Shown here in pieces: positions 35,848-61,529 of a stretch of DNA of 64,000 nucleotides. The number at the start of each line of letters is the position of its first letter. Position 1 is the stretch's first letter. The translations under genes were made by a program, and so were the position numbers. This DNA comes from Nemertoderma westbladi (taxonomy: Eukaryota > Animalia > Xenacoelomorpha): positions 124,001 through 188,000 of the forward strand of contig JAUCBJ010006711.1 of NCBI GenBank assembly GCA_032718475.1. The letters are read 5' to 3'. The notes below the pieces were generated by a model. That model was not told the origin of the DNA, made no database searches, and saw nothing but the letters and a program-made list of their open reading frames with translations.

Positions 35848-35971
35848 AACGGATAAACCGGGATCCTCCCTGGATCCCGTCACAGTAATTAAACCCGTCG
35901 GTGGCACAGTAATTAAACTCAGAGCTGCCGACCTAGCTAGCTAAACTACCAGCCACCAATCACCAAGCGAG

Positions 35972-38900: not shown

Positions 38901-39835
38901 CCGGTACCAGTACAGCAGTATGACTACAGCATGCAGGGACATAACATATACCCAGGGGAGGGGGGAATTATTGCGGATAGGTGTATGGGCCCCAACATAT
39001 TAACATCAACCCCAGTACCAAAGATACCGGTGGGGGGGGGGGGGGGCAGGGTGACATTCCCCCATCACAATATCAACAATATACCCCGATAGGAGCAAGA
39101 ACAACGAGACCCTTGGATGAAAATAGGTCGTGCGACACAGAAATTTGGAGGGGGCCGCTACCCCCGATGACATATCCAAGTCAAAGGAAAGGTGGAAATA
39201 GGACAGACGGACCGCACCAGACAGGAGAAACTATACAACATCCATCGAACCCATTGGAGGCACAGGCGATGGGGATGGCCACGTTGATCGATGCGTTGAA
39301 AACGAGGATCGAGTTACCACCCGTGGAACCATTCAAATTCGATGGGAGTAGGCCGGAAGAATATCTACAGTTTCGGCGCATGTATAGTAACGAAATACTA
39401 ACAAAAAACGTGACGCAGGCGGAGTGCCTAAAATATCTGCAAGTATACACGGGAGGCCCAGCATACGATATCGTGAGGCAATACCAAGGCATAGAGGGCG
39501 GCTTCACGACAGCATGGCGGGCACTGGATAGGGAATACGGGCACCCGGCCAAGATCATCAGGCAGACACTGAGAGGCATAACATCGGGTGGCCTACAGGA
39601 TAATCCCGTTAGCATTAAGACGTTCGCTAACAAAGTCGAAAAGGCGCTAATCGTGCTGAAGACGCTAGACGCGCCATACGAACTCAACGCGTCCAACAAC
39701 ATCCACCACGATAGCGCAGGCACTACCGAACTGGCTGCGCAACAAGTGGAGGAAGATCGCTTTCTCCACTCGAGACAAGAAGGGTGTGGAACCGGGTTTA
39801 GAAGAAATGTCAAGCTTCTTAAACTACGAGGCTGA
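35972..39835 (+). pseudogene. Disrupted gag region of BEL-A copy 2
   Basis: Overlapping ORF fragments 35972, 36238, 37273, 37430, 38106, 38981; same TAG (37192) and most frameshifts shared with copy 1. Confidence 0.85.
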
Positions 39836-42790
39836 ACTAATAACTGACCCAGTCTATAGCGAAGATAGCCTGGGAAAGGGACCGAAGACGGATTACCATA
39901 GACCGAAACCAGAGCACAATACATCAAACGCATTACCAAGGCTCAGGCAATCATTGCCATATGCAGCAACGCAGGGGACTACAAGTCCACAGATAGCCGA
40001 AAGTAAGACCACACCATGGAACGAACAGGGGAACAATAACAACACGAATAAATATAACCCCAGTATGTCCAGTAGGCCGAATCCAAACAATAAGAATAGT
40101 AGGGACTTTGGTACAAACGCAGCTGCGATACGCAATGCGCTGTATAAGGAGGGCTACGACCCAAAGAGCAAATGCCAGCTACACGCAAATGCGCTTCATC
40201 AGACCATGAACTGCAGGTACTGGCAGGCGCTACCTAGGCAAGATCAGATAGATTATGCGTTGAGCAATAAAATCTGCTCGCGATGTGTGATGAGTGGACA
40301 TAGAGCAAGGGAATGCAAGGAGAAGCCGGTAAAGTTCGGTCAAAGGAGAGGCCAAACGATGGCAACGAGCACAGTAGGGGCGAAGAAGAGAGGAACGGTG
40401 CTACTTGGAGTAGTACCCGTGCGAGTGATTGGGGAAGGCAATCGATCAGTAACAACACTAATGCTGGTCGATAGTGGAGCAGCCTTCACATTAGTCGAGG
40501 AATGGGTGGCCGAAGAGATAGGATTGAGAACGAGGCCAAGCAGAATGGCGGTAACAACCATCTCTAGCAAAGATGAGATCCTGGAGATGAGAACCGGACG
40601 GTGCGCAATTGCAGCAGTGGCACCGGGATGCGACTATGGGGCAACCATCGACCCCATCCAAGTGATAGAGTCAATTAATATCAATGCCAGGCGGCCAACC
40701 AACATCGAGGTCGAGCAATATAAATTCCTGGACGACATTGACTTCTCAATCCCAGATGTGGACATTAGGAAGGTATCCATCATAGTAGGAATGGACTGCC
40801 CAACGGCCCACGAAAGAATGCAAACGGTCTTCGGTGAAGACAAGCAGTGTGACCCGGTGGCGATATTAACACCATTCGTGCTGAGTGGCCCAATCAAGAG
40901 CAAGATACCATTTAGGATGTCGGAGACATCAGGATGCATGTTCGCGGGAACAATGCAGGAAATGGGTGATGAGGGAGCAGAGGAGCAGCTTAAAAGACTG
41001 CTCAAACAAGATTTCGAGGGACTGAAAGAGACCGGGGTCGGGACCTCGGTAGAAGACAAGCAGGCTTTACAAAGCGTGGAGGAATCGATGACATGCGATG
41101 AGGGGCGGTATACTATAGGAATGGTATGGAAACTACCGAAGATACCACTGCCCGATAATAGAGGGATGGTACTCACGAGACTCCGCAAGCTGAAACAAAC
41201 ACTAAAACGGAGCCCCGAGAAGAATGAGTACATCCACAGAACGATTAAGAAGTACGTCGAGAAAGGATGGGCCGTGGAGTTACCGGTCGACGAGCCGAAC
41301 ACGGACAGGACATATTACCTGCCACTCCACGTGGCTTTAGACCCAAAGAAAGGTAAACTGCGGATGGTAGTTGACGCATCGGCAAAGACCAACGGGAAAT
41401 GCTTAAACGACTATCTGTTAGAAGGTCCAAACATATACAACTCGGGCATAGAGGTCCTACTTAGATTTAGGAATGGGAAACACGCCTTCACGTGTGACAT
41501 AGAAGGCATGTTCAACCAAGTCCGCGTAACGAAAGAAGATAGCGACAGTCAACGCTTCTTATGGTATAACGGCGAGGAAGAACCGTCGATAATACCGGCA
41601 TATAAGATGGTAGTACAAAACATGGGGGCCAAGTCGTCTTCATTTACGACGACTATGGCAGTGAGAGACACAGTGAAGGGGAAGGAAGATAGATACAGCA
41701 CTAGGGCCGTCGATATGATTCGACGCGGCTTCTACGTAGACGACGGAATGGAGTCTGGAAATACGGTTAAGGAGATACTGGACACAGGGCGCGTGGTTCG
41801 CGACATCCTGAAAGGATCCGGCTTTAACCTGACCAAATTCCAATCCAGTTCGGAAGAATTTATCAAGGCGATAGAGGACAAGAGACCAGAATCTACCATG
41901 GATAATCCCACAACAGCCAAAGGGCAGGACATGGCGAACAAGAGAACAGAATCTCAACAGAAGGCATTGGGAATCGTGTGGAACAGGGAGACAGACGAAC
42001 TGAAGTATCAGCTGAGCCAGGAGGGTGCAGACATCCACACGAAGAGGGGCTATGTATCGTATATAGCAAGGATATACGATCCCCTAGGTCTAGCATCCCC
42101 ATTATTAGTCACGGGGAAACAGATACTCAAGAGAGTATACAAATTGAAGGATGAGTGGGACGTAGAGGTACCAGAGGAAATCAAGAAACAGTGGAGTAAG
42201 TGGACAGGAGACTTGGAGAAGATGGGAACATACAACATGCCACGAGTGTATTTCCCGGATGGGAACATGACGAATCTGGACCTACACATGTTCTCCGATG
42301 CGTCGTTGGAGGCGTACAGAGCGGCACTCTATTTAGTACAACGAGAGGGGGCTCATAAGCCCAGACTGGCCTTTAGCAAAGCAAAGTCAACGCCGCCAGA
42401 TTCAGCATCAGTTCCCAAGTTAGAATTGACAGCTGCGAGACTAGGAGTTAGAGCCACAGCCTACCTAGTGGATACTATTCCCAACATAGTGGAGACACAC
42501 TACTGGACGGACTCTATGGTAGTGCTTGGTTGGCTACATAACGAAAGGACGAGATACCCAATATTCGTCGCAAATAAAGTGGACGAAATAAGGGCGACCA
42601 CTGAACTGGAAAGGTGGCACTACTGCCCAACGGACGAGAACCCAGCGGACTTGTTGTCGAGGGGCGTGGTACGCCACACTTTCTTGAAGAAGGAAGTATT
42701 GTGGCAACATGGGCCACAATTTCTGAGCGATAAGGAGGCCTGGCCGCCGATGAGAAAGGTGGACCCGGGCTCAGAAGTAGTGTCAGAGGG
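39786..42790 (+). pseudogene. BEL-A gag C-terminus + aspartic protease + reverse transcriptase + RNase H (integrase missing)
   Basis: CSRCVMSGHRAREC knuckle; LVDSGA protease; YLPLH, DIEGMFNQV and FYVDDG RT motifs; LHMFSDAS, YWTDS and NPADLLSRG Pao-type RNase H. The last residues of the 1010-aa ORF are read from the BEL-B LTR. Confidence 0.95.
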
Positions 42791-44444
42791 TGATAAACAA
42801 CCGCGACCTCTATACTAACAGCAGAACTGTTGAACAGACCAATACCCGTTAATATCCTTCTGCCAACCTAATAAGTTCTCGTCTAACCAATAAGACACAA
42901 AGACTGCTCTACTGTTAAGTAAAGGGGCTCAGGAGCGTGATATTACTAAATTGTAAGGGTTGCTAAATACAAAACCGCTACTTACCGTTAGATGGCGCTA
43001 ATCTGCCGTCCGCTAATATATTTACTAATTTTACACAACTCCTGCAAAATCGCTTGTTCCTTTCTCTACCGATTGCTCAATAGAGAGCTAACTGTTCGAA
43101 TCTATGAGCCACGCAGGAATAACCAAAACAATAAACCCGAGTCGGCTCCCTAAGCTTACTTAAGACGAGTGCGAGAGGCCTTGCACTCAGAGTATTCTTA
43201 CGCCTAATTCTATCACTATTAAAGCACGCTATTACCTACGTCTTTTCTAATCGCGAATACTGGGGGTTCTCTAACGTAATGTGTGAATGCGAGAATATTT
43301 AAAATATCAAAAATGGTACAGTAATTGTCTCTCGTGGATAGTACCACTCTGGGTCTAAAATTGCCTGCAGCTGGCTTTAGGCCAGCAAATCACTAGCGTT
43401 TCGTGCGTACCGAATAGTGCGTTCTAGCTGATTGTCCGCTAATGCAAATAACCGCTCAGCGTGAATAGTTTACAGTACTCTAATTATTACTTTAGCTACT
43501 CTCCGCTATGCTGCGTACTAATTCTTAATTTTACTAATCAATTACAGTCACAAATATTTAACAGCGTACTAATTACTAAGAGTTCCAGAATACGTAATTC
43601 TAATTTATCACGCAACAGGTTTCGCTAGTAATAGCCTAAATTGCCGTATTACTTTGACCTAATCAGTAACTAATTGTTGTAACTAAGAAATAGAAATCAA
43701 TCAAAGAGAAAAGAGCGCCTACCTAAACATTCACAATCATAGGCACACTTCAGTAACACACCAATCAGCGTCAGCAATCACAGTTCGCAATTATGCAGTT
43801 AACTACTGTATAGCCCACAATTATGCGACTCACTATTCGTACTACACGCTCAACGTTCGAAACGTTGTGATACGTGCAGGCCTCTCCCGGGTACATATAG
43901 GACTCCTAACTAACCTGATTCCCGCCCCCCTAATACTAAATAGAGACGAAACCTGGATCATCAGCCCCCTAATTACCGTACCGGCGATTGGTCTGCGTAC
44001 CACAGCGTTAACTTCCCGACCGCAACGGTGACCCCACGCCAGCGTTGCTCGCTTTGAATCCTCCGCTCTCCCTTAGTCGCCCAACCCCCCGATGTGCCCA
44101 CCGCCCGCTGGCGCCTTAGCCCTCCATTACGCTAATAGCTACCGTAGCGGCGCATGCAAATCACAAAGTCTGACAGTCTCAGAAATCCCTTAGGATTATT
44201 GCGCAGGAAAGAATCACATAGAACCATTAATCAAAAGTAGAAATCATAGTTCAGTTGTAATTAGCAGTAATCGAAGGAATTAATTGAGAAACACAAGCAA
44301 GAGTAATCGCACTAGCAAATCATTTCAAGAAATTAATCAAATTGCAAAAATACTCTAAAATCCGTCAAAATTGAATAGAGACAGCTCAGCAAGTACAACA
44401 GCAGTGAAGGTTGAATCGATCGATAGGCTCTACCGGCACACCGC

Positions 44445-44510
44445 CAATTTATAGGTGATCCGGATGGGATGATGCAATAGGGTGACTCAATCGCTCTCCT
44501 ATTGGCTCTC
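44445..44510 (-). promoter_or_regulatory. Putative LTR promoter (CCAAT + TATA box)
   Basis: Minus strand GCCAATAGG (~44500) followed about 50 bp later by CCTATAAAT (44455-44447). Confidence 0.4.
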
Positions 44511-44866
44511 CAGTCCATGCTAGCATTAGACCAACCTGGAAGCAGTTAATCCAATAAGGAGGCCGGATTGTAGCCCTATTGCTCAAATTATTACCATATA
44601 TGGTAATGGTTCACGTCTCTGGCTGCTGAATGGCCAGGACGGCGTCCCTATGCTAGCCCTATCAAACTAATATCAGCAAGCACAAAATCCAGGGTCCGAA
44701 TAAACTCGCTACCCTGGAACTATCTACATATATCCTAATACAAAATTACGTAGGTAGGGCTACATACTATACAAAATGGATGGTTTCAAATATATGGGCG
44801 TTTTGATTTCCCTACCTAAATACCACTGCGTTATTATGCCTTATCTAAAATATCATGCTGCACAAT

Positions 44867-44950
44867 GGACTAATATTACGTACAGTATAACGGACTAATA
44901 TTGCATACTGCATAACGGACTAATATTACATACTGCATGATGACTAATAA
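44867..44950. repeat. 25-bp tandem repeat (x3.4) in the putative U3
   Basis: GGACTAATATT(A/G)C(G/A)TAC(A/T)G(T/C)ATAAC repeated. Confidence 0.8.
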
Positions 44951-45749
44951 TATGGATACAGCGCCATATACCGTAACACCGCTCCAAGGGAAATCATACA
45001 ATGTTTCCCTCCAATTGTAGAAGAGTATAAGGTGATGTATACAAAACAAAATAAATTTCTTCCAACCAATCTAAATACTTGATACTATAGGTCCTACTAT
45101 TTACAAATATTGCTATAGATATTGCATAATGAATTACATACAAATTAAATTTACAAAATATTGTCTCTCTCACTGTTTAACGATTATTACATACAAATTA
45201 AATTTACAAAATATTGTTTCTCTTTCGTTCTACTACATAATGATTACTACATACAAATCAAATATAAAATTTTGCTAGGGTAAGTGAAAGGAGTAAGCCA
45301 AACCCGCAGGTTTGTCTCCCCAATCACTTCCTTCGCCTCTCTCATAATATAAATTCCAAATAGCTCAACTAGTGTATATGAGTCTAGTCGAAAATTTCCA
45401 AATGCTACAATATACATCAGAGCGACGATGATGTATATATCTAGAGTCTGTCGCCCTGTGCTATAATGTATTATCGACCCGCTCCTGGGTTCTTTGGGCT
45501 CGCTCCTCTCTTCCGCCCCCTTCCCAGATACACTAATCTACCTCCAGTCGACTCCGTTGACTGCGTCCGTGAGGCGTCACTCCCCGGAACCGGCGACGAT
45601 GTTCCCTGAGCCCCGACAGATTCCCGGCTCGTGCTTCTTCCTCGGCCTCGTCCCAATTGTCGTGCTCCTGTGGTCGCTTCTGCCAACTCTTCCTTATGCA
45701 GTTGCACTCGCGCCTTCTCCGACGCTCCCTGCGCCTTGCGCTGCAACCT

Positions 45750-48700
45750 CTATGCTTCTATAATAGAGTGATAGTGATCGTCCTTGACTTGACGCTTGTC
45801 TTGGACCCCTCCTCCTGGTTCTTTCCGCGAGCCTTGAGCTCCAGCGGTCGTCGCTGTGGTCGCTGCGATCCTTTGTTCCTGTATCCTCTCAGCGGTCAAT
45901 GAACCCACTGGCACATGAGTCAACAAGAATTCGTTGCGGTATTGTATAGCCGCCATCCTCCAATCACCTCGCGCGCGTACCACTTTTCTAGTCTCCGTAA
46001 ATACACCCTTCGTGATGCGATCGCAAATAGCAACGAAGTTCCATGTGTACTTATTGTCCATGTTCAATTGTCTGAAGTACTCTCGAACTACGATAACTCC
46101 AGTGTTTTGTGGAAGGTCTTGAGCAGTTAGGATGAGCTCCTGATATTGTGGTAGCGATTGTAGATATGGCTCGTACGCAACATGCGATGGGTCTACCGCC
46201 CAAAACCCATATCCCGCTTTAAATGGTAACCAACGCATCTGCGCTTGAATATGGTAATCCGCCACACTCTCCCACTTGTCTAACATCTCCCGAAGTAGGT
46301 TAGCGCTATGGTTTTGAAAGGAATCATCTCGCAGCTGACATCTCGCGCTACGATGTCCCTTTACCCCACAATATCCACATTGAGAAATGAAGACGGTGCA
46401 CGTGTGAAACGAATGGTCGGTCTCATTACACCAACGACAGACTTTATGTGCCGCCTCCACTACCGCGTCGCACGACTTTAGATTGTGCCTTGTGCTGCCG
46501 CACAACTTGCACCTACGCGCTTGTGGAAACCAGGCCCTCTCGTATATGAGGTCTCCAATCGGTTTCGCACTTCCTTCCTTCCCAATGTCTAATACGATGT
46601 CGTCCTCTCCAGTCAACGGTTGTCGATCCGGAACAAAGTAAACATCCTCGCCCTTGTCCTCTATCTCCAATATTTCCTCCCGCGTTCGTTTCGGATATGT
46701 CTTCTCCACCGGAAGATCTACTCCGAACACCTCTACTAACGTTTCCGGCCAGCCCTCCTTAACAGGTCTATCAGCCTCCGAGTGGAAGGGAGTACCAAAC
46801 CCGCGGGTTTGATTCCCGAACCACTTCTCCAAAGCTTCTGGCGTCGGATATTCCATCGACGGTCGGTCTCCCAAATCTCCGATGTTCTGTCGATATACTC
46901 CTTCGAATATCGCTAATCCTCTCCTAATCATCGACGTATTCTCTAACGATTGGTTGAAGAACGGGGTTAAGAAACGCTTCATCACGTCGGATTGGATTCC
47001 CCCTTTCGAGCGAACGTATTGATCTCCTCCGAATACCAATGGATGACGCTTCAAAACTCGCGCAACGATATCCGCTAATAAACAAGTCACCGTGTTCGAC
47101 TCAAGCACCAAATAATATTGTAGCGACGCACGGGGTGGCGCGCAAATGTTCCAATACACTAACGCTTGCCGCTTGAAGTGGGATTTGAACTCCGCTCCCG
47201 GTGGCGTGTTGTATTCGCCATACGCCTCCTCATACTTCTTTTGCGTCTTTAACTTAAAGTCCCAATTATACAACAAGTGTGCTATAAAGCCCATACCAGT
47301 CTTGGCAGAGTTGGGATACTCCCTATAAATTCCAATATCCTGTGCCCATAGCAACAATAGCTTGGTGTCGACAAACGGTCTCGGCAATCTATCTTCCAGA
47401 TCAGTCATGGCGTTGAAGTCGCTCTCCAAATCGCTCTGGACTCCCGATCCCACCTTGACGTAATCTTGGTTGAGAATAGCCTCTCTAACTTTCTTTGGTA
47501 ACATCCTGGCGTCGATACGCTCCGCTCCGTGCATACCTCCTCGCCTGCATACCTCCAAAATCTGTTCCCTAGGATCCTTCCCCTTCCGATATTGTGTCGT
47601 TATGATGGGCTCCGGTCTCTCTCGATCCGCCCTCACACGCATAAACACATGAGTCACACCATCGGCCGCACGAATTTGAATACACTTGCTGGTCAAACAT
47701 TCCTGATGGGACCCTCCTTCATTGTCGTAGAACATCACCCTCCAATCCTGCAGCGATTCCTCCGTCTTCCTCCACTGACGCTGAATCTCGTCTGATGGGG
47801 TCCACATGCGCTCGATAGCCTTGTGGTCATCATATCGGGTATAAGAACCCTTCCTCCTCAGCCACGTCTGGTCTACCTCCTCGTCGTCTGGGAATGTAGC
47901 CACCGCGACCCATACCTTGATGTACTTATCCAACCATCCGAATAGCTTACTCTCCTTCCCCGGAGCTCCAATCTTATCCAACGTGTCATAATCTGTGATC
48001 TGCATTGGGACATCACGCAAGAACTTCGCGCATAAAACTTCCCGTAGACAGTCAACGTTCCAATGGTCCGCCATTCTTACCATCGGCAAGAATCGTATCG
48101 CTTCTCGCGACTCCGGATGATCTACTAATATCGCAGGTTCGGTGCCGTCGGAATAATACACCGGTCCGGGTTGAGATACGACCTGTGGAACAAATCCGGT
48201 CACTCTCCTCGTCTCCTCTTGATGTCTATCCGCGGTCTTATTATACTCCGCTATCCTGTTCTCAAATAACTCTTTCGCCTTCGCCGCTCGCTCCTCCTGC
48301 CGCAACGCGTCTATGTCGTCCTGATGCTCAGGCGTGAGGCTTCTCACTCGGTGAGGTGAAGTAAACGTAGTCCAGGGACTCGAGAGCTCCAAACCCGCGG
48401 GTTTGGTACCCGAGTCCCGCGCCGCTTCGCGCCACGCCTCTAGATCCTTGTAGGCTCGGTACAGCGAAATGGCCGCTGCCGTCTCTATCAAACTGGGTGT
48501 CGAACAGGGTTTAATCTCCGTATACGGATCTAATGTCGTAACGGTCGGCGTAATGGGTCTCGGAGGTCGCTTTCCGCTGAAGTCGATACTGATCGTCGGG
48601 TTGCTCATCGGGTAACCTCCCTCGTTGTATCTAAGGAATTGGTGAGCTGGACATCGCGTTAATATCGGTTCCGGATGTTGCTCGTCTAGTCGGTCGGGAA

Positions 48701-49178
48701 TCGCCACGTCCTGTTTATTCATGCATTCACCACACTTGTAGAAGAGCTTGTATACGCTGAAGACTTTCGGCGTCTCCTGATCCTCGCCTCGAGTCCTCCG
48801 ATACAGATGCATTCCGTCGAACTGGTCTCGGACTGCAGGTAGAGGCTCCTCATGTCGTAAATACATATTCATATGGTATAGTCGTGCGATTTCCTCGTCC
48901 GGATCTGCGCTAATGTCGCACACGTCCAAAGCGAAGTCGTAGGGATACCGCGTGCGATACTCTCTCCGCAAGACTTCCATCCGGTCCCCCAACGCTCTCA
49001 TTCTTTCTCTCCGTAATTCTTTATCATAACTTGGTTTGTACTTCCCGTTCAGCTCCATCACGGACCGCCCATGGTAGTAAACGTTAGAGTCTTTACATCC
49101 TGGTCGCGCGAATGGTAGCTCCGCCTCCTCTCTGGCAGTAAATCCTCTGCGCGGTTGCGCTCTAATATCCCTCTCCAT
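45750..49178 (-). CDS. BEL-B extra ORF: DEDDy (WRN/EXD/Mut-7-like) 3'-5' exonuclease + three CCHC zinc knuckles, 1142 aa
   Basis: ExoI MFYDNE; ExoII LPKKVREAILNQDYVKVGSGVQSD; FVDT; GMGFIAHLL; ExoIII-like W..PP...LQYYLVLE. Knuckles CKLCGSTRHNLKSC, CRWCNETDHSFHTC, CGYCGVKGHRSARC. ATG start, uninterrupted. Confidence 0.8.
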   Translation of the reverse strand: MERDIRAQPRRGFTAREEAELPFARPGCKDSNVYYHGRSVMELNGKYKPSYDKELRRERMRALGDRMEVLRREYRTRYPYDFALDVCDISADPDEEIARLYHMNMYLRHEEPLPAVRDQFDGMHLYRRTRGEDQETPKVFSVYKLFYKCGECMNKQDVAIPDRLDEQHPEPILTRCPAHQFLRYNEGGYPMSNPTISIDFSGKRPPRPITPTVTTLDPYTEIKPCSTPSLIETAAAISLYRAYKDLEAWREAARDSGTKPAGLELSSPWTTFTSPHRVRSLTPEHQDDIDALRQEERAAKAKELFENRIAEYNKTADRHQEETRRVTGFVPQVVSQPGPVYYSDGTEPAILVDHPESREAIRFLPMVRMADHWNVDCLREVLCAKFLRDVPMQITDYDTLDKIGAPGKESKLFGWLDKYIKVWVAVATFPDDEEVDQTWLRRKGSYTRYDDHKAIERMWTPSDEIQRQWRKTEESLQDWRVMFYDNEGGSHQECLTSKCIQIRAADGVTHVFMRVRADRERPEPIITTQYRKGKDPREQILEVCRRGGMHGAERIDARMLPKKVREAILNQDYVKVGSGVQSDLESDFNAMTDLEDRLPRPFVDTKLLLLWAQDIGIYREYPNSAKTGMGFIAHLLYNWDFKLKTQKKYEEAYGEYNTPPGAEFKSHFKRQALVYWNICAPPRASLQYYLVLESNTVTCLLADIVARVLKRHPLVFGGDQYVRSKGGIQSDVMKRFLTPFFNQSLENTSMIRRGLAIFEGVYRQNIGDLGDRPSMEYPTPEALEKWFGNQTRGFGTPFHSEADRPVKEGWPETLVEVFGVDLPVEKTYPKRTREEILEIEDKGEDVYFVPDRQPLTGEDDIVLDIGKEGSAKPIGDLIYERAWFPQARRCKLCGSTRHNLKSCDAVVEAAHKVCRWCNETDHSFHTCTVFISQCGYCGVKGHRSARCQLRDDSFQNHSANLLREMLDKWESVADYHIQAQMRWLPFKAGYGFWAVDPSHVAYEPYLQSLPQYQELILTAQDLPQNTGVIVVREYFRQLNMDNKYTWNFVAICDRITKGVFTETRKVVRARGDWRMAAIQYRNEFLLTHVPVGSLTAERIQEQRIAATTATTAGAQGSRKEPGGGVQDKRQVKDDHYHSIIEA

Positions 49179-49964
49179 TATGCCTCGCGTATATACATAT
49201 ATATATATCCCAATAAGTGCCGTTACGTAACCAACTACACTGTGGGTAAATCAGTTAGATGTCGCCGAAGGACAGACCTCCCGAACCCCCCCCCCCCCCC
49301 CCCCCCCCGCCTTCCAGCAGTTCAGGTTCGACTCTCTAGATCCCGTCTCTTCCTAACTAACTATCCTCTAACCTATTCCCATGCATAGCGCAAAAACTTT
49401 GGAGATAACCAACCTTTGGAGATGGCCGTGACCAACTCACTTTTTGATGCCCAAACTACTCCCATTACTCGTACTAAACTACAGTAGTTAGAAAGGACCA
49501 TAGCCACAATACTCGACTATACCAAACCCACAGGTTTGATAATCGAACATCACACATCCTGCAAACTACTGAGTGGGGTCCATGTACGCCTCTGGTGCTA
49601 CTAACCTTTAGCACCTTAGTTGCACTGTTGGCACCAATCTGTGGAAGTTGCTAAACTCAATTTACACTCCTACGTAATATAGCCGTCACCATGGTTTCTA
49701 AATGCTATTTTCCAGGCTTCACAACTTTTCAAATTACTGTTTATCTATAGACGAATTCTAAAACGCGTCTATACACAGCGTCTGGAATTGTCTTGGGTTC
49801 ACTTCTAATTTTTAAAATTTTGTAATTTTCCAAAAATTTTGAAAATAAAATTTTGTTTTGATACCCACCAGACAAAACTCAACGCAAATCACCACAACCC
49901 CGCTCCTATGCATTTCCTTGTATTTGCATACGAGGAATGCATACGATGTGAGTTGCGTCCAACA

Positions 49965-52900
49965 CTAACTCTGTTTTGAGACAGGAGACAAATTATAATC
50001 TCCCGTCTCGATACGTGTCTCCTCTAATAACACAATATCTTGGACCGGTCGGTCCAAGGTGTGTAAACCATTAGTTTTACACTTTTTTGGGTGCGGACAC
50101 TTGCACCTAATTTTCACAGTGACTGTGCGCACTATGTTTTGCACGTCTGGGTGTGTGTGCAAGATCACTCCAGTCTCCCAATACTTTCTCTTGACAATGG
50201 GTTCGGTTATCAATACGTAGTCTCCCTTTTGGAGACTCCGAACCGTTTTGTACCACTTTGTTCTGGTGGATATGGTGGGAAGATAGTATTCCCGCCAATA
50301 TTCCCAGAATTTGTACGCGACTAATTGAGTCATTTTCCAGCTCTTACGACTATATAGGTCGGCACTAATGGGTTCTGATGCCGGCACAAGAAATGCTGGA
50401 CTCTGCATTAGCAAATGATTCGGCGTTAATGCAACACCGTCTGGCAACATAGCTATCGGCCTCGAGTTTAGGGTATGCTCGATTTCAATGAAAGCTGTGA
50501 CCAGTTCGTCGTCGGTAAGTTGTTTGTTCACAGGCAATGTTTTGGCAATGGCCTGTTTTACAGAGCGAACCAAACGCTCCCAAATTCCTCCTCTCCAAGG
50601 ACTTTCTGGAGTATTAAATCTCCATTCTACTCGTTGCGGCAAAAGTGCTGCAGAAATTTCCTTATTCTGTGCTGCTTTATGAGCCGCGTTCAACTCGCTA
50701 TTCCCTCCGACAAAGTTTGTACCCTTGTCAGAGTAGAACGCCTTTACTAGTCCTCTCCTGGCCATAAATCTCTTTAAGGCCAGGAGCAGAGATTTGGTCG
50801 ACATGTCTGCCACACGCTCGATATGTATGGCTCTACTCGCCATACATGTCAGTAGCAGACCCCATCGCTTGTGGGTCAGCCGTCCACTCTTTGCTTCAAT
50901 CGGACCAAAACAGTCCACCCCTGTATTCGTAAAGGGTGGGTCATATGCCTGCACTCTCGCTTCCGGGAGTTCAGCCATCTCCTGTTCCAATACTCTGGCG
51001 TTCACCCTCTTGCAAACCAGACAGGCGTCATACATAGTGCCGACTGCCCTGCTTGGCTGCAATAGAATGAATCGCTGTCTCGCTGCCGACAGACAGTGTA
51101 ACTTTCCCGCGTGATGCAACCTCTTATGTATATCCCATAGAATCGCTCTTTGCAATTCTATCGGGTAACTAGGGATTATCACTGGGAACCGAAACTGTGA
51201 GTTTATGTCGACAGTCTGGATTCTCGATCTATGACAAATCAAACCCTTATGGATTAATGGACTCCATTTTCTAAGGGGTTTATAGAGAACTGGTCGATGA
51301 GCCGATAATAGATGGAATTCTTTCGGGAAGGCACACATTTGATAATGTTTCAAATGCTTTAATTCCGCTTGATCAATCTCATCCTCTGTCAGAGGTTGTT
51401 TCAATTTCCGAATTCGCTCACTATTGGTGCTCAATGGTTCTCTCAAATGTTTTGAATGTTTTAAACAAAGGTACGAAACGTATCGGCTTAACCACGCAGG
51501 TCTTTTACAAATTGTCAGCCAAGAGGCAGACGAATTTAGTAATTTGTCATAAATACTGCATGACTCTAATGCCAGCGACGGTTGTCCGCTAACTAATGGA
51601 CGTTTCGAATCCAAACCCGCAGGTTTGGAAACCAAAGGATCCATTGTGTCGGTCATTTTCTGTCCGTCACTTACCAATTGTGACTCCGGTTTAGTCTGTA
51701 AGGGCGGTTTTATGTCATAACTTACCCTTCCTGACCTAATAGTCACGTAAGTCTGTTGGTCTGACAGGTCTCCGGGCCGCTCCAATGACTCTTCAGGCTG
51801 CTCCAATGACTCTTCAGGCCGCTCCAATGACTTAAGTTTGGCTTTAGACTTCGACTTAGAGACTTTCTCCACTTTGACTTCTGCATCTTCAGGCATCGGA
51901 TTGGTCACTATCTTTAGTCGCTCTGGCCAATGTTCCTGTGTCCTCGTTAGAAAATCAGGTCCATGCAACCAAAACTCCTGCGACTCTTCCTGACAGAATT
52001 CCGCCGGCATTGCACCTCTCGAAGTTATGTCGGCCGGGTTCAACACTCCCGGACAATGTCTCCATTGTTCCTTCGTCGAAAAGTCAACGATCTGAGCGCG
52101 TCTATTGGCCACAAATGTCTTTAGTGCAATATTGTCGGCCGCAATGTATACTAACACCAAGGATGCGTCCGTCCAATAGAATAAGGTCAATGTCGTGTCT
52201 AACTCCTCAGTTATTTGCTTACTTACCTCGACCGAAACTACAGCCGCCTGTAACTCTGCACGAGGGACAGTCATGTATTTGACCGGCATTGTCTTTGATC
52301 TAGAAGTCACAAAAGCCGTCTCAAACTTGTCCTGACTTACCTCTCGGCGAAGGTAGGCTACCATACCAAAACCGGTGTCACTTGCGTCACTAAATAGGTG
52401 GAGCTCTAAATCAGCTGGGAATACCAGCTGATTCGGAAGGTAGGAACGGGGTACATCTATATTTTTCAATAGATGCAACTCGGCTTCCCACTCCCTCCAC
52501 TGCTTTGCATGTATAGGAGATATTGGTTCGTCCCACTCTAAGTCGGACAACCAAATTTTCCTCATGCACGCTCGTGCCTGTAATATAACCGGACTGATAA
52601 AGTTCATCGGGTCAAATAGTCTACTCAATGTCGATAAGCAAATCCTCTTAGTCAAAACTTTGTCTGGGCTACTGGGCTCAAATCTAACTCTTACCTGGAA
52701 CTTATCTGAGTTCGGGTTCCAAGCGAGTCCCAGTACTCGCGCCATGGGAATTGGTTCTACCCCCAATTCTATGTCTCCGCTCCCGCGATCCTTTACCGGG
52801 AACGACTCTAATAGGGCCTCCGAGTTCGTAGTGAACTTGGTCAGAGGAAATCCCCCTGTAGCCAAGCACTCCTGCAGGCCGTGAGCCACTTCTATGGCTT

Positions 52901-55900
52901 GTTCCGCTGTGTCCTTGGACACCAATCCGTCGTCCATATAGAAGTTTCTCAATATAGACTCGATTACTTCTACTGGATACTTACCAATCTGGGCTGTTGC
53001 CGTTTTCTTTAAAACGAACAGCGTGCCATTCGGACTATCGCGGGCGCCAAATATCCTAACGTACATCTGGTATGTAACCACTGGGCCGGATAAGTCTTCA
53101 TTCTCAAACCAGAGAAATCGAAGGCTATCCTGGTCTGCCTTACAGGCTCTTACCTGGTGGAACATCGCCTCGATGTCACAAGTAAATGCGAATCGCCGCT
53201 GTCTAAAACGCAACAGTATTCCGATCAAATAGTTATTCAGGTTGGGACCATCCATCAACTCTGAATTCAGGGACATACCTCTATAGACTGCTGCGCAGTC
53301 GTTGACTACTCGGACTTTGTCTGGCTTGTCAGGGTGAGTCACATAGTGGTGTGGAAGGTAATAAGTCTGGTCTGTCACCAAGTCAGGGTCCTCTACCTTC
53401 CCAGCAAATCCCTTGGCGAAATAGTTGTTGATCTGGGCGCAATACTTCTCCCTAATGTCCGGATTCTTCAACAACCGAGCCCTTACTCCGTTCAATCTTT
53501 TCAAGGCTAAGTTGTAGTTGTTCTCCAACTTAGGTGGTTGTCGACGCCACAACATTCCAACTTCAAAATGTCCAGTCGGTAGTAGACGTATGGTATCTTC
53601 CATCATCTCCAACGACCGTTTCTCATCAGTAGACATGGCTAGGTCATATCCACCGGGTTCCATTGCGTCCCTATCCAGCCATTCGACGGTTCTAGCTCCT
53701 GTCTCGAGGTCCTGGCGTATCAATTCCTTTTGTAATTCCTCCTCACTGTATTGGAAAATGTCTAGGTCTCGAGATTTAGCCACTTGACCCTCCACTATGT
53801 CTGTATAAGTCAAAACGTTAGTCAAATAGGTAGCGTGGGCCGCTGAACCAGACCCACGGGTCTGATAACAGTAGTCCTCGGGTTCACTATCTGTCCGGTC
53901 ATTATGAAGTGGTTCCGACAACCTAACATTATCGGGAATCAACTCCTCATCTGACTCGCTAAAGTCACTATAGTGGTCAATACAGGTTCTCCTAAACTCG
54001 TCTATGTCTGGTGGTTTTACTAACGGTGGTTGAGCTATAGGCTGTAATTCGTCGTATCTATTCATTGGCTTGTCGCCACCTGTAAACTCATAAGACATGG
54101 GTACTCGTGTATACCAACCTAGTATGGTCCTATGGGCATGTGGTCCATTGACATGCGGCTCAGCTGGTCTCGTTTCCCATATCTGGTGTGCGATCAGCTG
54201 TTCTGCACCAATCAACATAGAAACATTCCTATAACCTACCTGGTGTCTGGGTATCCTGAGCTTGTCAAAATACTCCTGTGCTATGGGACTCATCGGCGGC
54301 ACCTTACCTAACTGCCTGCCGAATCCCTTCATAGCTAGACACTTAAATCCGTCCAATGGCAAAGCTTTCCGTTCTTGTCGAGTATGCTGGTCTCTCGGAA
54401 GTAGGGAATCTAGTTCCACCGAAATTCTGTGTCCCTTGAGGTCACCTACCCCATGCATAGACTTCAACTCTATTTGGATCTCCTCGGCGTCCTGGAAGCT
54501 AGAAACAGCTCTCGCCACTTCCTCGTCGATATACGATAATGTGGACGCAGTGTCCAACATCACATATATTCGCTTCGATCCCTTATCGCTGGTGAGTTTC
54601 ACCGGAATCACGCTAAATATTTCCGACGTGGCCGATGATAAATACGTCCGCGCGCTGGTCGATGAACTATCCGCGGTGAAACCTTGGCAGGTCACTTCTC
54701 TCGCGCTCGACTCGCCATCCTCGTCCGACGAACCTGGTTGGTAACCATCGTCCTGGATGCCAGTGTACGTATTCCTCCTTATCGATACGGGTTCTTTGCT
54801 CCCCTTCCTTTGAGGATTTCGCTGTAAGTAACGGTCCGTTGGGGTATGGAAATCCGCATGTAGCAACTTGTGATGTAGTCTGCCGCATTCCATGCATCCG
54901 TCCTTGCTGTTCGGGCACTGCCGCCGTACATGTCCTGGCGCAAGACAAGCCCAACAGGTGTCCAACGTCCGCACTTGAACTCTTCTCTGTTCTGAATTTA
55001 ATTCCTTGAACCGTCTGCAACTATCTAACTTATGGTCGTCAGATCTTACCTCCTTTAGTAAACAGTATTGGCAACCTACAAATCCATCCGGCAACTCCTG
55101 TTGCTTTAACCTAGGTCTATCTAACCGCTCACCTGACCATACTCGCGAGTCTGATCTAAAGGCTGGGGTATTCGAATTATATCTGTCTACTGAGTTATAA
55201 GTCACAGTGGTCCTGTCATCGTCAAAACTTACCATAGACTTACCGGTAACAGGTTTAGACTCTCTCATATTCTCTTCTGAGAAGTTTGATTTCATCTCTG
55301 CTACTGCGTCTGTGGCTATCATGTCATGAATATGCTGAAGTGTCAATACTTTACCTTGGCCCTCCAACTTATTCTCTAATTTGCGCCATTTCTGTCGGTA
55401 ACGCATGTTTAGACGTCTTATTACGCTCTTTAAAACTTCGGCGTGATCACCATGATGAGGTAGATTCACCGTCCTCAAGATGTCCAATGCGTTCGAAATA
55501 GCGTTCGCTAAATTCAACAGCTCAAACGGAGTTGTAATCCTTCCGCCCTTACCCAAGTCTTCTACTATCGACTGCGCCATCTTGGTTTTATTCCCGTAGA
55601 TGTCGCTAAGCGTCTTCATTGCTAACTCGAATGCTCTTTCGTTGCCGACGAAATTATCAGCAATGGCTCTAGGTTCTCGATGGAGCATCTGAAGCAAATA
55701 GTTGAACTTCTCGTTGGGAGTAAAGGTGCTGTTGGTTAGCTGCTCGTCGACATAGGTTTTAAAGGTCCTCCAGTGCTTGTGGTTGCCCATAAACTTCTGG
55801 GGTTGTTGCGTCGGCAGTCCTTGCCTAGCAGCAAACTTACCTATGTCCCTAAGGGTTGCGTCGTTCCGGGTTAACAAATGGTTTAGTTCCGCAGGGTTGT

Positions 55901-57668
55901 TAAGTCTGGTCCTTTCCCGGTGGTTCCAACTTACCTGCTCCGCGTTGGTCCTTCTTTCCTTATAGTTTCGGGACTTCTGACGTCTCATTTCTTCCTCTTC
56001 ATCGCTTGACTCGGTGTCAGTCCTTAGCGCTCGCGATGATTTGCGCGCCGAGGCCCTGACCCAAGCATCCTGAATAAATCTTTCTGCCGAATTTTCGAAA
56101 TTGGGATTATGGATATTCGGGACAGGCGTCCTTACCTGAGGTCTATGTGGTATAGTTTCCTCCGATATGCGTACTCGTTGACTAGGCTGGACTTTATCTA
56201 ACTCAGGCCTGCTGGGATTAGAATTACTTCTTACCTGGGCTGCTTCCTTTAACCGTAGGTTGCTAAGCATGTCCGTTATAGGTTGGATGTGCGGCGATAT
56301 AGCTTGCGCTAAACTAGCACTTAACTCATCCCTCGTAATAAATTCCTGGCTAGGGTTCTGTTGTATAGTCGGCTCTATCTGAGTAATCCGCTGTCTCTCA
56401 TATGATCCCTCTTCCGGTTTAACCCGGAAGTTCTCCGTCGAACTGGGTCGGCGCTCCGTCCGCGTATTCCAAACCCTCGGGTTCGGTTCGCCAAGTACTC
56501 GTTCCGTCGGAGTTTCTTCTCTAAATTCTCCGTTCTCGCGTTCGATATATAGTGGTGCGGTGTTCCGATGACGTAGATCCTGAGCGATGGGTGAAACACT
56601 AATACCAACTGGCGTGCGATATGTAGAGAATGGTTTAGCGATCCGTGTACTCGTAATAGCTGGACCGAGTATAGGAATTCTGGTCGTCGTTGACTCGCGT
56701 ATAGTCGGAGTTCTCGCTTCCTGTTCGGCCTTCTGCAGTGCGAACAGTTCTCGCAACTCTGTCCCCACACTCGCCCCACATTCTTCGAGCATTCGCATCC
56801 CCTTCTCGGCGATTTCGTTCGCCTTCCTAGTCCGTTCTTCGCTCTCTAAACTTAATCTCGCACTTTCCAACTGCGCCAGTTTACGCTCTTCTTCTTCCCT
56901 CGCTCGTCTCGCTGCGCTCTCTTCTTCTACTCGCGACCTTTCTTCATACAATGCGCGTCTTCTTTTCTCGATCTCGAGTTCGCGTTCCTTGCGTCCGCGT
57001 TCGAGTTGAAGCTCGCGCTCCTTCTGTTCACGATCGAGTTTCTTGCGCTCGCGTTCGGCTTGGAGTTCGCGTTTCTTCGCTTCCTGTTCGCATTCAAGTT
57101 GGAGTTCGCGTTCTCTCTGTTCGCGTTCGAGTTGGAGTTCGCGTTTCTTCGCTTCCCGCTCGCATTCAAGTTGGAGTTCGCGTTCTCTCTGTTCGCGTTC
57201 GAGTTCCTCGCGCTCGCGCTCGGCTTGGAGTTCGCGTTCCCTTTGCTCGCGTTCCGCTCGCTCGCGCTTACTTATCTCTTCCAACTCTCGTAACTCTGCG
57301 TCCAACTTACGTGTGCGCTCCCGTTCCCGCTCGGCTTCCTTCCGTGCTTCCTGTGCACGCAAAACTTCCGCCTGCTGTTCGTCTAGTCGGCGTCTTCTCT
57401 CCTCCGCCGAGTTGTGAGAAACAAGGGATCTAGCACATATTACCTTACCTCGCGCGTGACTAACCTGGGAATCGCCGCTGTCTCTAGATGCATCGTCGGT
57501 TGGAGTCAACGTCCTCTGTTGGATGTTCTCCGTCGTCGGTAGCACCTGACCTGGTACCACCACTCCATTCTGCATCAGCCAGCTAGTAACTTCCCTCTGA
57601 TACCGGCGCTCCTCTTTATCCTGCGTCTCTTCTCGCTCCACTAAGTCTCTCAACTCTGCGTCACTCAC
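49965..57668 (-). CDS. BEL-B Gag-Pol polyprotein (main part, 2567 aa)
   Basis: Coiled coil; PQKFMGNHKHWRTF gag; Cys arrays CWACLAPGHVRRQC and CMECGRLHHKLLH; LDTAS protease; YLPHH, DIEAMFHQV, FYMDDG RT; LHLFSDAS and NPADITSRG RNase H; HHAG..CLVC, GVDCFGP, YSDKGTNF, GIWERLVRSVK integrase. Confidence 0.97.
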   Translation of the reverse strand: MSDAELRDLVEREETQDKEERRYQREVTSWLMQNGVVVPGQVLPTTENIQQRTLTPTDDASRDSGDSQVSHARGKVICARSLVSHNSAEERRRRLDEQQAEVLRAQEARKEAERERERTRKLDAELRELEEISKRERAEREQRERELQAEREREELEREQRERELQLECEREAKKRELQLEREQRERELQLECEQEAKKRELQAERERKKLDREQKERELQLERGRKERELEIEKRRRALYEERSRVEEESAARRAREEEERKLAQLESARLSLESEERTRKANEIAEKGMRMLEECGASVGTELRELFALQKAEQEARTPTIRESTTTRIPILGPAITSTRIAKPFSTYRTPVGISVSPIAQDLRHRNTAPLYIERENGEFREETPTERVLGEPNPRVWNTRTERRPSSTENFRVKPEEGSYERQRITQIEPTIQQNPSQEFITRDELSASLAQAISPHIQPITDMLSNLRLKEAAQVRSNSNPSRPELDKVQPSQRVRISEETIPHRPQVRTPVPNIHNPNFENSAERFIQDAWVRASARKSSRALRTDTESSDEEEEMRRQKSRNYKERRTNAEQVSWNHRERTRLNNPAELNHLLTRNDATLRDIGKFAARQGLPTQQPQKFMGNHKHWRTFKTYVDEQLTNSTFTPNEKFNYLLQMLHREPRAIADNFVGNERAFELAMKTLSDIYGNKTKMAQSIVEDLGKGGRITTPFELLNLANAISNALDILRTVNLPHHGDHAEVLKSVIRRLNMRYRQKWRKLENKLEGQGKVLTLQHIHDMIATDAVAEMKSNFSEENMRESKPVTGKSMVSFDDDRTTVTYNSVDRYNSNTPAFRSDSRVWSGERLDRPRLKQQELPDGFVGCQYCLLKEVRSDDHKLDSCRRFKELNSEQRRVQVRTLDTCWACLAPGHVRRQCPNSKDGCMECGRLHHKLLHADFHTPTDRYLQRNPQRKGSKEPVSIRRNTYTGIQDDGYQPGSSDEDGESSAREVTCQGFTADSSSTSARTYLSSATSEIFSVIPVKLTSDKGSKRIYVMLDTASTLSYIDEEVARAVSSFQDAEEIQIELKSMHGVGDLKGHRISVELDSLLPRDQHTRQERKALPLDGFKCLAMKGFGRQLGKVPPMSPIAQEYFDKLRIPRHQVGYRNVSMLIGAEQLIAHQIWETRPAEPHVNGPHAHRTILGWYTRVPMSYEFTGGDKPMNRYDELQPIAQPPLVKPPDIDEFRRTCIDHYSDFSESDEELIPDNVRLSEPLHNDRTDSEPEDYCYQTRGSGSAAHATYLTNVLTYTDIVEGQVAKSRDLDIFQYSEEELQKELIRQDLETGARTVEWLDRDAMEPGGYDLAMSTDEKRSLEMMEDTIRLLPTGHFEVGMLWRRQPPKLENNYNLALKRLNGVRARLLKNPDIREKYCAQINNYFAKGFAGKVEDPDLVTDQTYYLPHHYVTHPDKPDKVRVVNDCAAVYRGMSLNSELMDGPNLNNYLIGILLRFRQRRFAFTCDIEAMFHQVRACKADQDSLRFLWFENEDLSGPVVTYQMYVRIFGARDSPNGTLFVLKKTATAQIGKYPVEVIESILRNFYMDDGLVSKDTAEQAIEVAHGLQECLATGGFPLTKFTTNSEALLESFPVKDRGSGDIELGVEPIPMARVLGLAWNPNSDKFQVRVRFEPSSPDKVLTKRICLSTLSRLFDPMNFISPVILQARACMRKIWLSDLEWDEPISPIHAKQWREWEAELHLLKNIDVPRSYLPNQLVFPADLELHLFSDASDTGFGMVAYLRREVSQDKFETAFVTSRSKTMPVKYMTVPRAELQAAVVSVEVSKQITEELDTTLTLFYWTDASLVLVYIAADNIALKTFVANRRAQIVDFSTKEQWRHCPGVLNPADITSRGAMPAEFCQEESQEFWLHGPDFLTRTQEHWPERLKIVTNPMPEDAEVKVEKVSKSKSKAKLKSLERPEESLEQPEESLERPGDLSDQQTYVTIRSGRVSYDIKPPLQTKPESQLVSDGQKMTDTMDPLVSKPAGLDSKRPLVSGQPSLALESCSIYDKLLNSSASWLTICKRPAWLSRYVSYLCLKHSKHLREPLSTNSERIRKLKQPLTEDEIDQAELKHLKHYQMCAFPKEFHLLSAHRPVLYKPLRKWSPLIHKGLICHRSRIQTVDINSQFRFPVIIPSYPIELQRAILWDIHKRLHHAGKLHCLSAARQRFILLQPSRAVGTMYDACLVCKRVNARVLEQEMAELPEARVQAYDPPFTNTGVDCFGPIEAKSGRLTHKRWGLLLTCMASRAIHIERVADMSTKSLLLALKRFMARRGLVKAFYSDKGTNFVGGNSELNAAHKAAQNKEISAALLPQRVEWRFNTPESPWRGGIWERLVRSVKQAIAKTLPVNKQLTDDELVTAFIEIEHTLNSRPIAMLPDGVALTPNHLLMQSPAFLVPASEPISADLYSRKSWKMTQLVAYKFWEYWREYYLPTISTRTKWYKTVRSLQKGDYVLITEPIVKRKYWETGVILHTHPDVQNIVRTVTVKIRCKCPHPKKCKTNGLHTLDRPVQDIVLLEETRIETGDYNLSPVSKQS

Positions 57669-58414
57669 CTGAGTCGCCTGCGCTTGTGATGCCCATAGCA
57701 GCCAGTTCTCTGTCCTAACTCGTCGGATCGCTCCGATAACTCGCGGTGCTCCAACAAGGCTGCTAAAACCCTGTCGTAAATCCTCGTCGCCACGTCGCTC
57801 GACTGAGACTCTACTGCCTTCTTCGCTAGGACTGCAAGCTCCTCCGTCTGCTTGAATAACGCTGAGTTATATCCTCTTCTAATCTCTGCTAACTCTACCC
57901 TCCCGATGTTGGCTGAGTCGGCCAACATTTTTCTTACCTTGTCCGCCGTCCGAGTTATATGTCCGGCATGCGCGCGAAGTTTCTTCTTTATCGCGATATC
58001 AAGTTCTCTATCACTTACCTGACTTACACTCGGTGGACTTGAAGGATTATTTCGGGAACTACGGGTACTCCTTACAGCCGTTGGGACCACGGCACTTACC
58101 ATACCCACAGGTCTGGAAACCGGGCTCCGGGCTCTCGCTTCTGCTACACTATCCTCCCTATCACTCACCTCTGTCCGGGCTGCCGTACAGTCCTTCCTTA
58201 CAGTAGCGGTAGGGGATCCTAATACTATTACTTGAGGTTGCTGTTCTTCCTCACTAGTCACTGTCTCGTCCTCCTGTTCACTTACGTCAGCGTCACTCGC
58301 TGCGTCGTCATAGTCGGCATTGTCGTCAACAGTAATATTGACGCTATCGTCAGTCGGCGGTCCAGCCGCCGTCTCGTAGCTGTCCTCTAGTGCCTCCTTG
58401 TCTGAGACACTCAT
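57665..58414 (-). CDS. N-terminal Gag segment of BEL-B (249 aa), out of frame with the main ORF
   Basis: ATG-initiated acidic/helical ORF overlapping the GTG-called start of the 2567-aa ORF by 4 nt; the main ORF is in the -1 frame. Confidence 0.7.
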   Translation of the reverse strand: MSVSDKEALEDSYETAAGPPTDDSVNITVDDNADYDDAASDADVSEQEDETVTSEEEQQPQVIVLGSPTATVRKDCTAARTEVSDREDSVAEARARSPVSRPVGMVSAVVPTAVRSTRSSRNNPSSPPSVSQVSDRELDIAIKKKLRAHAGHITRTADKVRKMLADSANIGRVELAEIRRGYNSALFKQTEELAVLAKKAVESQSSDVATRIYDRVLAALLEHRELSERSDELGQRTGCYGHHKRRRLR

Positions 58415-61370: not shown

Positions 61371-61529
61371 GGCACCTTAGTGGAGTTAGAGAAGAGTTTA
61401 GTCATCCAAGATTTGGACTGAGGACGGTGGGATTGAGACGCCCTTCCCACACAAAAAATTTAAAATAAAAAAAAAAATAAAATAATAGTACATAATAGGT
61501 ACGCAGTTAGTAGGCAGAAGTTAGCCAGT

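Follow-up and report, generated by a model that had tools for sequence, protein, structure and literature searches.

A maintained third gene for a predicted DEDDy exonuclease with three zinc knuckles in a BEL/Pao retrotransposon of Nemertoderma westbladi

The stretch of Nemertoderma westbladi DNA analyzed here (64,000 nucleotides (nt) of contig JAUCBJ010006711.1, positions 124,001 to 188,000; referred to as the window) contains a BEL/Pao retrotransposon on its minus strand that carries an additional gene, open reading frame 3 (ORF3), in the env position. ORF3 is almost certainly a DEDDy-fold gene maintained by the element. It is an accessory third ORF of its BEL/Pao family, as seen from its position, its intact frame, the selection acting on it, and a family of proteins of the same build. 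As far as searched, BEL/Pao is a new carrier superfamily for DEDDy third ORFs, and the protein family is uncatalogued. The finding bears on the open question of whether animal retrotransposons have counter-measures of their own against small-RNA silencing. The role of DEDDy third ORFs in bdelloid rotifers was left open in PMC5408684, and the present case adds a second superfamily of elements with long terminal repeats (LTRs). It also contributes evidence of selection on copies to keep the gene, a defined domain build with a solved analogue, the RNase D of Trypanosoma brucei (TbRND), and a candidate RNA signal.

ORF3 is located between the gag-pol ORF and the 3' LTR, about 790 nt after pol, and has no internal stop, with a chance probability of 5e-27 for such a run by a rough base-composition estimate. 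The uninterrupted frame of 1142 amino acids (aa) and its place in the element, noted in a preliminary description of the sequence, were borne out by the ORF coordinates, the BEL/Pao domains, and the identity of the LTRs. The motifs named in that description were all found, viz. ExoI (D485-x-E487 at 47726), ExoII (KVGSGVQSD at 47456, with D583), an ExoIII-like motif (Y689-xxx-E693 near 47117-47100), and three CX2CX4HX4C knuckles (46511-46470, 46439-46398, and 46379-46338) about 170 residues beyond the nuclease. YEEAYGE (47234) was considered as ExoIII and ruled out by alignment. The features added to the earlier picture are a glutamate as fourth ligand, a second DEDDy gene, a conserved module after the knuckles, and dispersed hairpins. 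The active site of ORF3 reads D-E-D-E-(y) and not DEDD, with E693 as fourth acidic ligand. A coiled coil (residues ~285-326) lies within the otherwise unassigned N-terminal 450 aa. The highest 19-residue hydropathy was only 1.34, at the ExoIII helix, in line with the earlier statement that there is no obvious transmembrane helix and unlike the membrane anchor of env.

Some further observations concern the ORF3 frame and its surroundings. A C-x2-C ... C-x2-H pattern at residues ~149-180 (48636-48734, minus strand), absent from the eight relatives described below, is a possible further zinc site. The frame stays open beyond the stop at 45750-45752, so that read-through, or a later stop in other copies, could give a longer protein. 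Shortly upstream of the start codon, the sense strand has a run of ~24 G (49276-49320, minus strand). Summed depth of public contigs was lower over ORF3 than over pol, a measure that cannot rank genes, and no joint skipping the whole of ORF3 was found among the 15 of 96 contig joints listed.

ORF3 is under strong purifying selection across copies. Selection was read from variants in public contigs, which mix copies, alleles, and close subfamilies. ORF3, whole or in part, was present in six public runs from four studies, among which no RNA dataset was listed. In the test region, the 1758-nt core coding for residues 455-1040, 1948 and 848 contigs from two DNA runs of two studies were aligned; many were 80-95% identical, all 30 bins were covered, and no insertion or deletion was listed at a share of at least 10%. 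Among the 40 listed of 68 variant sites, 38 were third codon positions and 37 were synonymous (21-34% expected), giving a ratio of nonsynonymous to synonymous polymorphism (pN/pS) of ~0.02-0.04. In the worst case, with all 28 other sites residue-changing, the synonymous share (37/68, 54%) would still be above expectation. Variants of gag-pol (5 synonymous, 9 not, n = 14) were considered and rejected as control: they were the best-supported of 1025 rows, nearly all fixed against this copy, and are most likely its private mutations, so that such near-fixed differences provide no like-for-like comparison. The two variants listed in the N-terminal part of ORF3 were of the same near-fixed kind, and both changed a residue. 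Neutral evolution and absence from other family copies, the doubts raised in the preliminary description, were thus not observed: the core is covered by many divergent copies, and a homologue apparently occurs in a second BEL/Pao family.

Neither ORF3 nor this homologue, ORF3b, had a match in Pfam (E ≤ 1) or NCBIfam; the nuclease assignment rests on profile and structure evidence. Since Pfam does not detect the family, it may have escaped notice in many invertebrate genomes. Eight relatives of ORF3 at E ≤ 5e-4, with 25-32% identity and 514-727 aa, all without name or hypothetical, were identified by exhaustive HMMER search (cut-off E ≤ 0.001) among 1.84 billion representatives. The knuckle cluster and the following tail module are common to all eight, the nuclease motifs are kept in seven (one of them without its N-terminus), and the N-terminal 450 residues of ORF3 are shared by none. 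Sixteen columns are invariant (nuclease, 4; knuckles, 10; tail module, 2); the final Cys of the third knuckle was aligned in five of nine rows. The catalytic positions were compared in a nine-row alignment that includes ORF3 and ORF3b and leaves out the degenerate relative P0006. ExoI D-x-E was found in all eight rows covering it, the ExoII Asp in 9/9, the ExoIII Tyr in 8/9, and the ExoIII acid in 9/9 rows, as Glu in four (including both window proteins) and as Asp in five, at only 14-32% identity in the exonuclease domain. P0006 (L001, 124-2025) has a degenerate nuclease and a doubled knuckle-plus-tail module with 585-nt spacing.

The DEDDy fold and catalytic geometry of ORF3 were predicted by two approaches. 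The nine-member family profile matched EXD2 (E 3.8e-7) and Egalitarian (E 0.044) and, via its knuckles, Lin28, TbRND (E 6e-5), and retroviral nucleocapsids. A model of residues 455-790, of moderate confidence only, had a mean predicted local distance difference test score (pLDDT) of 59.5 (core blocks 68-88) and a predicted template modeling score of 0.62; modeling of the full length from a single sequence gave no usable structure (pLDDT 33). With an exhaustive structural aligner, the top 20 of 48,161 chains, all of them DnaQ-fold domains by title or known identity, gave Z scores of 10.9-9.0 over ~150-170 residues at root-mean-square deviations of 3.5-4.5 (apPol 10.9, WRN 10.2, Nibbler 10.1, Exd1 9.6, TbRND 9.0). 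The DnaQ/DEDDy fold proposed earlier is supported by the EXD2 match and these Z scores of ~9-11; among the routes then suggested, Pfam was silent, and the profile and the model alignment were positive. In the Atlas feature match set, 24 of 30 were with DNA_pol_A_exo1 (0.91), and the best Atlas cluster of relative P0007 has the same pair of nuclease and knuckles (0.86), to be taken as a lead only. No Pfam HRDC domain, which follows the nuclease in the Rrp6/RNase D subgroup, was found in ORF3 or its eight relatives, that region of the ORF3 model having a pLDDT <50. A single-sequence search of solved structures with ORF3 gave weak knuckle matches only, word-based protein searches with the ORF3 core and with the family alignment gave no relative, and none was found among the viral contigs or phage records searched. 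A metagenome scan yielded no confirmed locus in 60 pattern matches for relative P0010 and only its own 3.7-kb contig for P0006. The nine-sequence exonuclease tree was poorly supported (44-83), with no order of events visible.

ORF3b, on the plus strand, begins 970 nt beyond the apparent pol end of the element that was broken by the ORF3 carrier, designated the target element. Over 166 residues it shares 23% identity with ORF3 (pairwise E 4e-4), and all five catalytic positions are present; no knuckle was found in its first 536 residues, up to the window end. ORF3b is most likely the third ORF of the target BEL/Pao family, the link being adjacency across a deletion. The reverse transcriptase (RT)-RNase H regions of the two families are 31% identical, and in a tree of 121 sequences a node with 0.97 support separates them. 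The apparent occurrence of a homologue in a family with such a distant pol indicates that ORF3 is no one-off capture. The genomic context is known for one of the eight relatives, P0006. Behind it on L001 come an LTR-like stretch, a motif resembling a primer site (CA-GA-TGG), and the start of an acidic gag-like ORF without Pfam match, an arrangement consistent with P0006 being the 3' ORF of a collapsed LTR element. The spacer upstream of ORF3b (61502-61927, plus strand) contains ~10-13 tandem 32-nt units, most with a small inverted repeat, GGTAC-GTA-GTACC.

The carrier also contains eight dispersed hairpins, seven of which were identified by motif scan, folding, and alignment. They have 6-9 bp stems with a YGNG loop on the sense strand, and these seven sites are spaced at 1.1-2.6 kb. 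The scan gave 13 strand matches at the seven sites versus 0.08 expected, and none elsewhere in the window. All seven fold on the sense RNA (z -1.5 to -4.2). Five of them are in coding regions and occupy three codon phases, compared with 0.11 in synonymous shuffles, of which 0/1000 reached five, the motif having been chosen post hoc. In the alignment 94.6% of cells pair, and of eight pairs four are invariant, two vary on one side via G-U, and two are changed on both sides. The G-U pairs and the one-sided loop consensus favor an RNA hairpin over a palindromic DNA site. One of the listed copy variants, at 56477, affects the free position in the loop of hairpin 7. A perfect inverted repeat at the pol end (50041-50058) has the inner stem of the hairpin family, but its loop (GACC) and outer stem are different.

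ORF3 is probably catalytically active, and, with slightly more assurance, its substrate is predicted to be RNA rather than DNA. It would act as a 3'-5' exonuclease of the two-metal type, with the zinc knuckles holding single-stranded RNA and guiding the 3' end of that RNA into the active site; as in TbRND, the knuckles would supply RNA binding as well as activity. By comparison with the gene layout of retroviruses, ORF3 would be expressed separately from Gag-Pol, through a spliced or subgenomic RNA. The target, the least certain step, would be host guide RNA, its unprotected precursors, or tell-tale RNA by-products. ORF3 has the features expected of a counter-defence gene, directed against small-RNA silencing or RNA decay: most BEL/Pao elements do without it, it is separate from pol, it has no membrane anchor, and it is found in distant lineages. 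We propose this purpose tentatively, as the leading one of several readings and at somewhat less than even odds. A wider version, in which an undescribed family of DEDDy-plus-triple-knuckle nucleases serves invertebrate LTR retrotransposons as a common accessory module passed between distant BEL/Pao lineages and, with the eight GNG-loop hairpins in this element, the enzyme tells own from host RNA and destroys silencing guides or by-products, is unlikely. If true, an animal retrotransposon would carry an anti-silencing nuclease of its own that is addressed by sequence. The core of ~590 residues suits separate expression and assay on defined RNA and DNA ends, so that the question can be tested directly.

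Several points weigh against counter-defence. Strong purifying selection is more easily reconciled with a benefit to the producer copy than with a diffusible suppressor, from which defective copies could profit as well. Mature piRNAs are protected by a 3' 2'-O-methyl group (PMC11599104), and the bdelloid DEDDy ORF3 had no clear link to copy number (PMC5408684). Glu as fourth ligand may affect catalysis, and P0006, with catalytic motifs lost and the knuckle module doubled, suggests that binding can matter more than cutting. With regard to the fold, Foldseek gave EXD2 as top row at E 1.1e-3 and nothing at E ≤ 0.001, and DNA nucleases (apPol, diDNase, WRN, Klenow) were tied with RNA nucleases among the top folds.

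The strong selection among copies would fit an action in cis, with ORF3 working on the element's own RNA; its knuckles would read the YGNG hairpins or another signal, and the nuclease would trim the genomic RNA end or the RT primer, or clear fragments. The confinement of the eight hairpins to the sense strand of this element, their excess in coding sequence beyond synonymous shuffles, and stem pairing with two-sided changes and sense-only G-U pairs are in line with this proposal. The knuckles of the nucleocapsid of human immunodeficiency virus type 1 (HIV-1) bind the G residues at positions 2 and 4 of GGAG and GGUG loops (PMC7599994), and the Gag knuckles or those of ORF3 could therefore read the hairpins. 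A TGG-type tRNA primer site was not found after the 5' LTR of this copy, where the bases begin GTAAT. On the other hand, the three Cys/His knuckles that Gag has of its own are the simpler hairpin binder, and the pairing score was matched by 9/500 shuffles. Moreover, the hairpin is absent from the 10 kb of the target family in the window and from L001, though both carry an ORF3 homologue, and L001 has an ordinary TGG motif. An own-RNA function is possible, but on balance unlikely.

The variation of the fourth ligand also allows a weak or dead nuclease, i.e. an RNA-binding adaptor or decoy in the manner of Egalitarian or EXD1, which would block a host trimming complex or, taking the role of an envelope, bring the element's RNA to the germ line. 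EXD1 is a DEDD derivative reported to be inactive but to retain RNA binding (PMC5408684), Egalitarian and Exd1 were among the matches of ORF3, and the gene occupies the env position. Asp is replaced by Glu in four of the nine rows, including both window proteins, and P0006 has lost the catalytic motifs. The retention of four acidic positions and the Tyr at 14-32% domain identity, as catalysis or metal binding would need, renders an adaptor improbable.

An action on DNA, by proofreading, trimming of cDNA ends before integration, or destruction of abortive cDNA that could alert innate sensors, has a slim chance. CCHC knuckles also bind single-stranded DNA, and the top folds are exonuclease domains of DNA polymerases, diDNase, and WRN. 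For the DEDDy domain in some Dada transposons, 3'-end processing was proposed (PMC3706591). However, ORF3 is a separate ORF without fusion to RT or integrase, most BEL/Pao elements have gag and pol only (PMC3118150), and the sole solved protein with the same domain pair works on RNA (PMC7797062). A passenger host gene or chance ORF without role for the element, for which the silence of Pfam, NCBIfam, and word-based searches and the single known context among eight relatives might speak, is largely refuted by the low pN/pS on a core with 1948 and 848 variant contigs, the homologue in a second family, and the lack of introns.

The coordinates of all features are compiled in Table 1.

Table 1. 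Features of the ORF3-carrying element and of the target element in the window
Feature	Position	Strand	Basis or content
ORF3, 1142 aa: N-terminal 450 aa, DEDDy-type exonuclease, linker, three CCHC knuckles, tail module	45750..49178	-	
Predicted DEDDy-fold 3'-5' exonuclease domain, residues ~463-717	47028..47792	-	D485, E487, D583, Y689, E693
Three exact CX2CX4HX4C zinc knuckles, residues 890-947	46338..46511	-	motif scan and alignment
Post-knuckle module, residues ~960-1015, aromatic-E-x-x-A-D ... G-F	46134..46301	-	conserved in relatives; matches no known family
In-frame extension after the ORF3 stop, 92 open codons, basic, R/G/S-rich	45471..45749	-	3/4 listed copy variants synonymous
ORF3b, second DEDDy gene (D-D-E, KVGS...D, Y-xxx-E), 536 codons to window end	62391..64000	+	sequence alignment
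Hairpin 1, 3' untranslated region	45299..45314	-	motif scan, folding, alignment
Hairpin 2, within ORF3 linker	46796..46811	-	motif scan, folding, alignment
Hairpin 3, within ORF3 N-terminal part	48390..48405	-	motif scan, folding, alignment
Hairpin 4, pol-ORF3 spacer	49523..49538	-	motif scan, folding, alignment
Hairpin 5, within pol	51612..51627	-	motif scan, folding, alignment
Hairpin 6, within pol; one pair altered on both sides	53849..53864	-	motif scan, folding, alignment
Hairpin 7, within gag; stem G-U pair	56470..56485	-	motif scan, folding, alignment
Hairpin 8, within 5' gag; one stem mismatch	58100..58115	-	outside the folding and alignment set
BEL/Pao gag-pol, 2633 open codons	49965..57866	-	DUF1759, gag knuckles, Peptidase_A17, integrase, DUF5641
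5' part of gag, acidic; frame differs from remaining gag in this copy	57665..58414	-	ORF list
3' LTR	42791..44978	-	42791-44455 by identity with 5' copy; 44456-44978 inferred
5' LTR remnant, start just ahead of TATA-like box, CA end	59706..61370	-	identity with 3' LTR
Target BEL/Pao pol, broken by the ORF3-carrying element	39669..42790	+	Peptidase_A17, protease, RT (Pfam)
Short open frame like the last residues of BEL/Pao pol	61371..61421	+	by-eye comparison with related pol ends

The gag-pol ORF of the carrier contains Pfam domains in the Pao-type order PR-RT-RH-IN (DUF1759, Peptidase_A17 with E 1e-38, Integrase_H2C2, a weak rve, and DUF5641). Relatives of its pol, with identities up to ~41%, derive from sources including marine invertebrates and fish, and PF05380 was present in all 120 pol relatives among the matches listed. 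The copy is incomplete, with gag distributed over two frames (split near 57.7 kb) and a shortened 5' LTR. The LTR copies 42791-44455 and 59706-61370 are 99.82% identical, and with only three mismatches in 1665 nt the insertion is recent. The CA end of the LTR is evident, and its TG start was inferred only, the 5' LTR being shortened; assignment of 44456-44978 to the LTR is based on a TG start after a purine-rich run, one contig joint at 44978, and the highest summed depth. The resulting length of ~2.2 kb (~1.6 kb beyond the TATA-like box) exceeds the 0.2-1.2 kb given for BEL/Pao LTRs in PMC3118150. The target-site duplication is unreadable because a deletion, by which the 5' LTR joins the apparent target pol end, removed one flank. 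The failure to find it and the primer site concerns this copy and is outweighed by the pol domains in the assignment to BEL/Pao. No complement of at least 8 nt to the primer-site position was found in the sense strand of the element, and the region 42500-64000 gave no Rfam match at E ≤ 0.1 and no tRNA gene. CA-GTAAT after the 5' LTR (59500-59705, minus strand) is repeated ~95 nt further on and occurs twice in the leader of the target family (~35880-35915, plus strand); it may represent a splice donor or a primer site of an uncommon kind.

Most of the first 35 kb of the window consists of a 416-nt satellite (71 unit matches), whose units show higher-order similarity over positions 1-35355 with a 2.2-kb interruption at 4609-6789. 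The target-family BEL/Pao is inserted in this satellite on the plus strand, as a 5' fragment at ~16.4-21.2 kb and as a second copy from 35.36 kb. Both insertions lie in near-identical satellite context (6.1 kb at 98.8%), which is probably due to segmental duplication. The frame at 61371-61421 is taken as the opposite flank of the target element, left behind by a deletion.

With respect to known systems, a DnaQ-like domain has been termed a well-known accessory of LTR elements (PMC6338049). Among cellular enzymes, the EXD2/WRN-exo/Nibbler (Mut-7)/EXD1/Egalitarian group of DEDDy domains gave the best profile match and the top Foldseek rows, both led by EXD2, with Z scores of 9-10 for WRN, Nibbler, Exd1, and Egalitarian. 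Structural identity to this group is 8-15%, with no clear donor, and the matched chains have no knuckles. The env-position genes of BEL/Pao elements occupy the same place between pol and the 3' LTR (PMC3118150); ORF3 differs from them in having no clear membrane helix and a nuclease fold instead of that of a viral fusion protein. No published DEDDy ORF was found for BEL/Pao in mostly open literature, with annotated cases conceivable in Repbase, Dfam, or GyDB, and the word exonuclease is absent from the main text of the BEL/Pao survey (PMC3118150). DEDDy ORF3s are known from the bdelloid LTR elements Juno1/2 and Vesta2/5 (PMC5408684) and from Athena/Terminon (PMC6431247), and the precedent claimed in the preliminary description is thus real. 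Like the ORF3 described here, they are stand-alone DEDDy genes after pol in the env position, without membrane domains, in unrelated retroelement lineages. Here the carriers are BEL/Pao elements, the motif is D-E-D-E versus DEED as written in PMC5408684, and the nuclease is followed by knuckles and a tail module, none of which is described for bdelloid ORF3s in the available part of that article. ORF3 is under purifying selection, whereas in bdelloids variation was tested for env-like and GDSL ORFs only and was mostly neutral (PMC5408684). The hairpins resemble the stem-loops recognized by HIV-1 nucleocapsid in having G at tetraloop positions 2 and 4; the HIV-1 signals are gathered in the leader, whereas eight near-identical hairpins are distributed here over 13 kb of coding and non-coding sequence.

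TbRND (PDB 7C42, 7C45) is the best architectural analogue. It combines a DEDD exonuclease with tandem CCHC knuckles in the same order, a pairing called very unusual (PMC7797062). Its substrate is small guide RNA, the level of which is reduced on TbRND overexpression, and without its knuckles RNA binding is almost gone and cleavage is much slower (PMC7797062). Unlike the element-borne ORF3, with its three knuckles and 450-residue N-terminal part, TbRND belongs to the host, acts in mitochondria, and has four knuckles behind a linker of 28 residues. At only 15% identity, the likeness of the two proteins probably represents convergent architecture.

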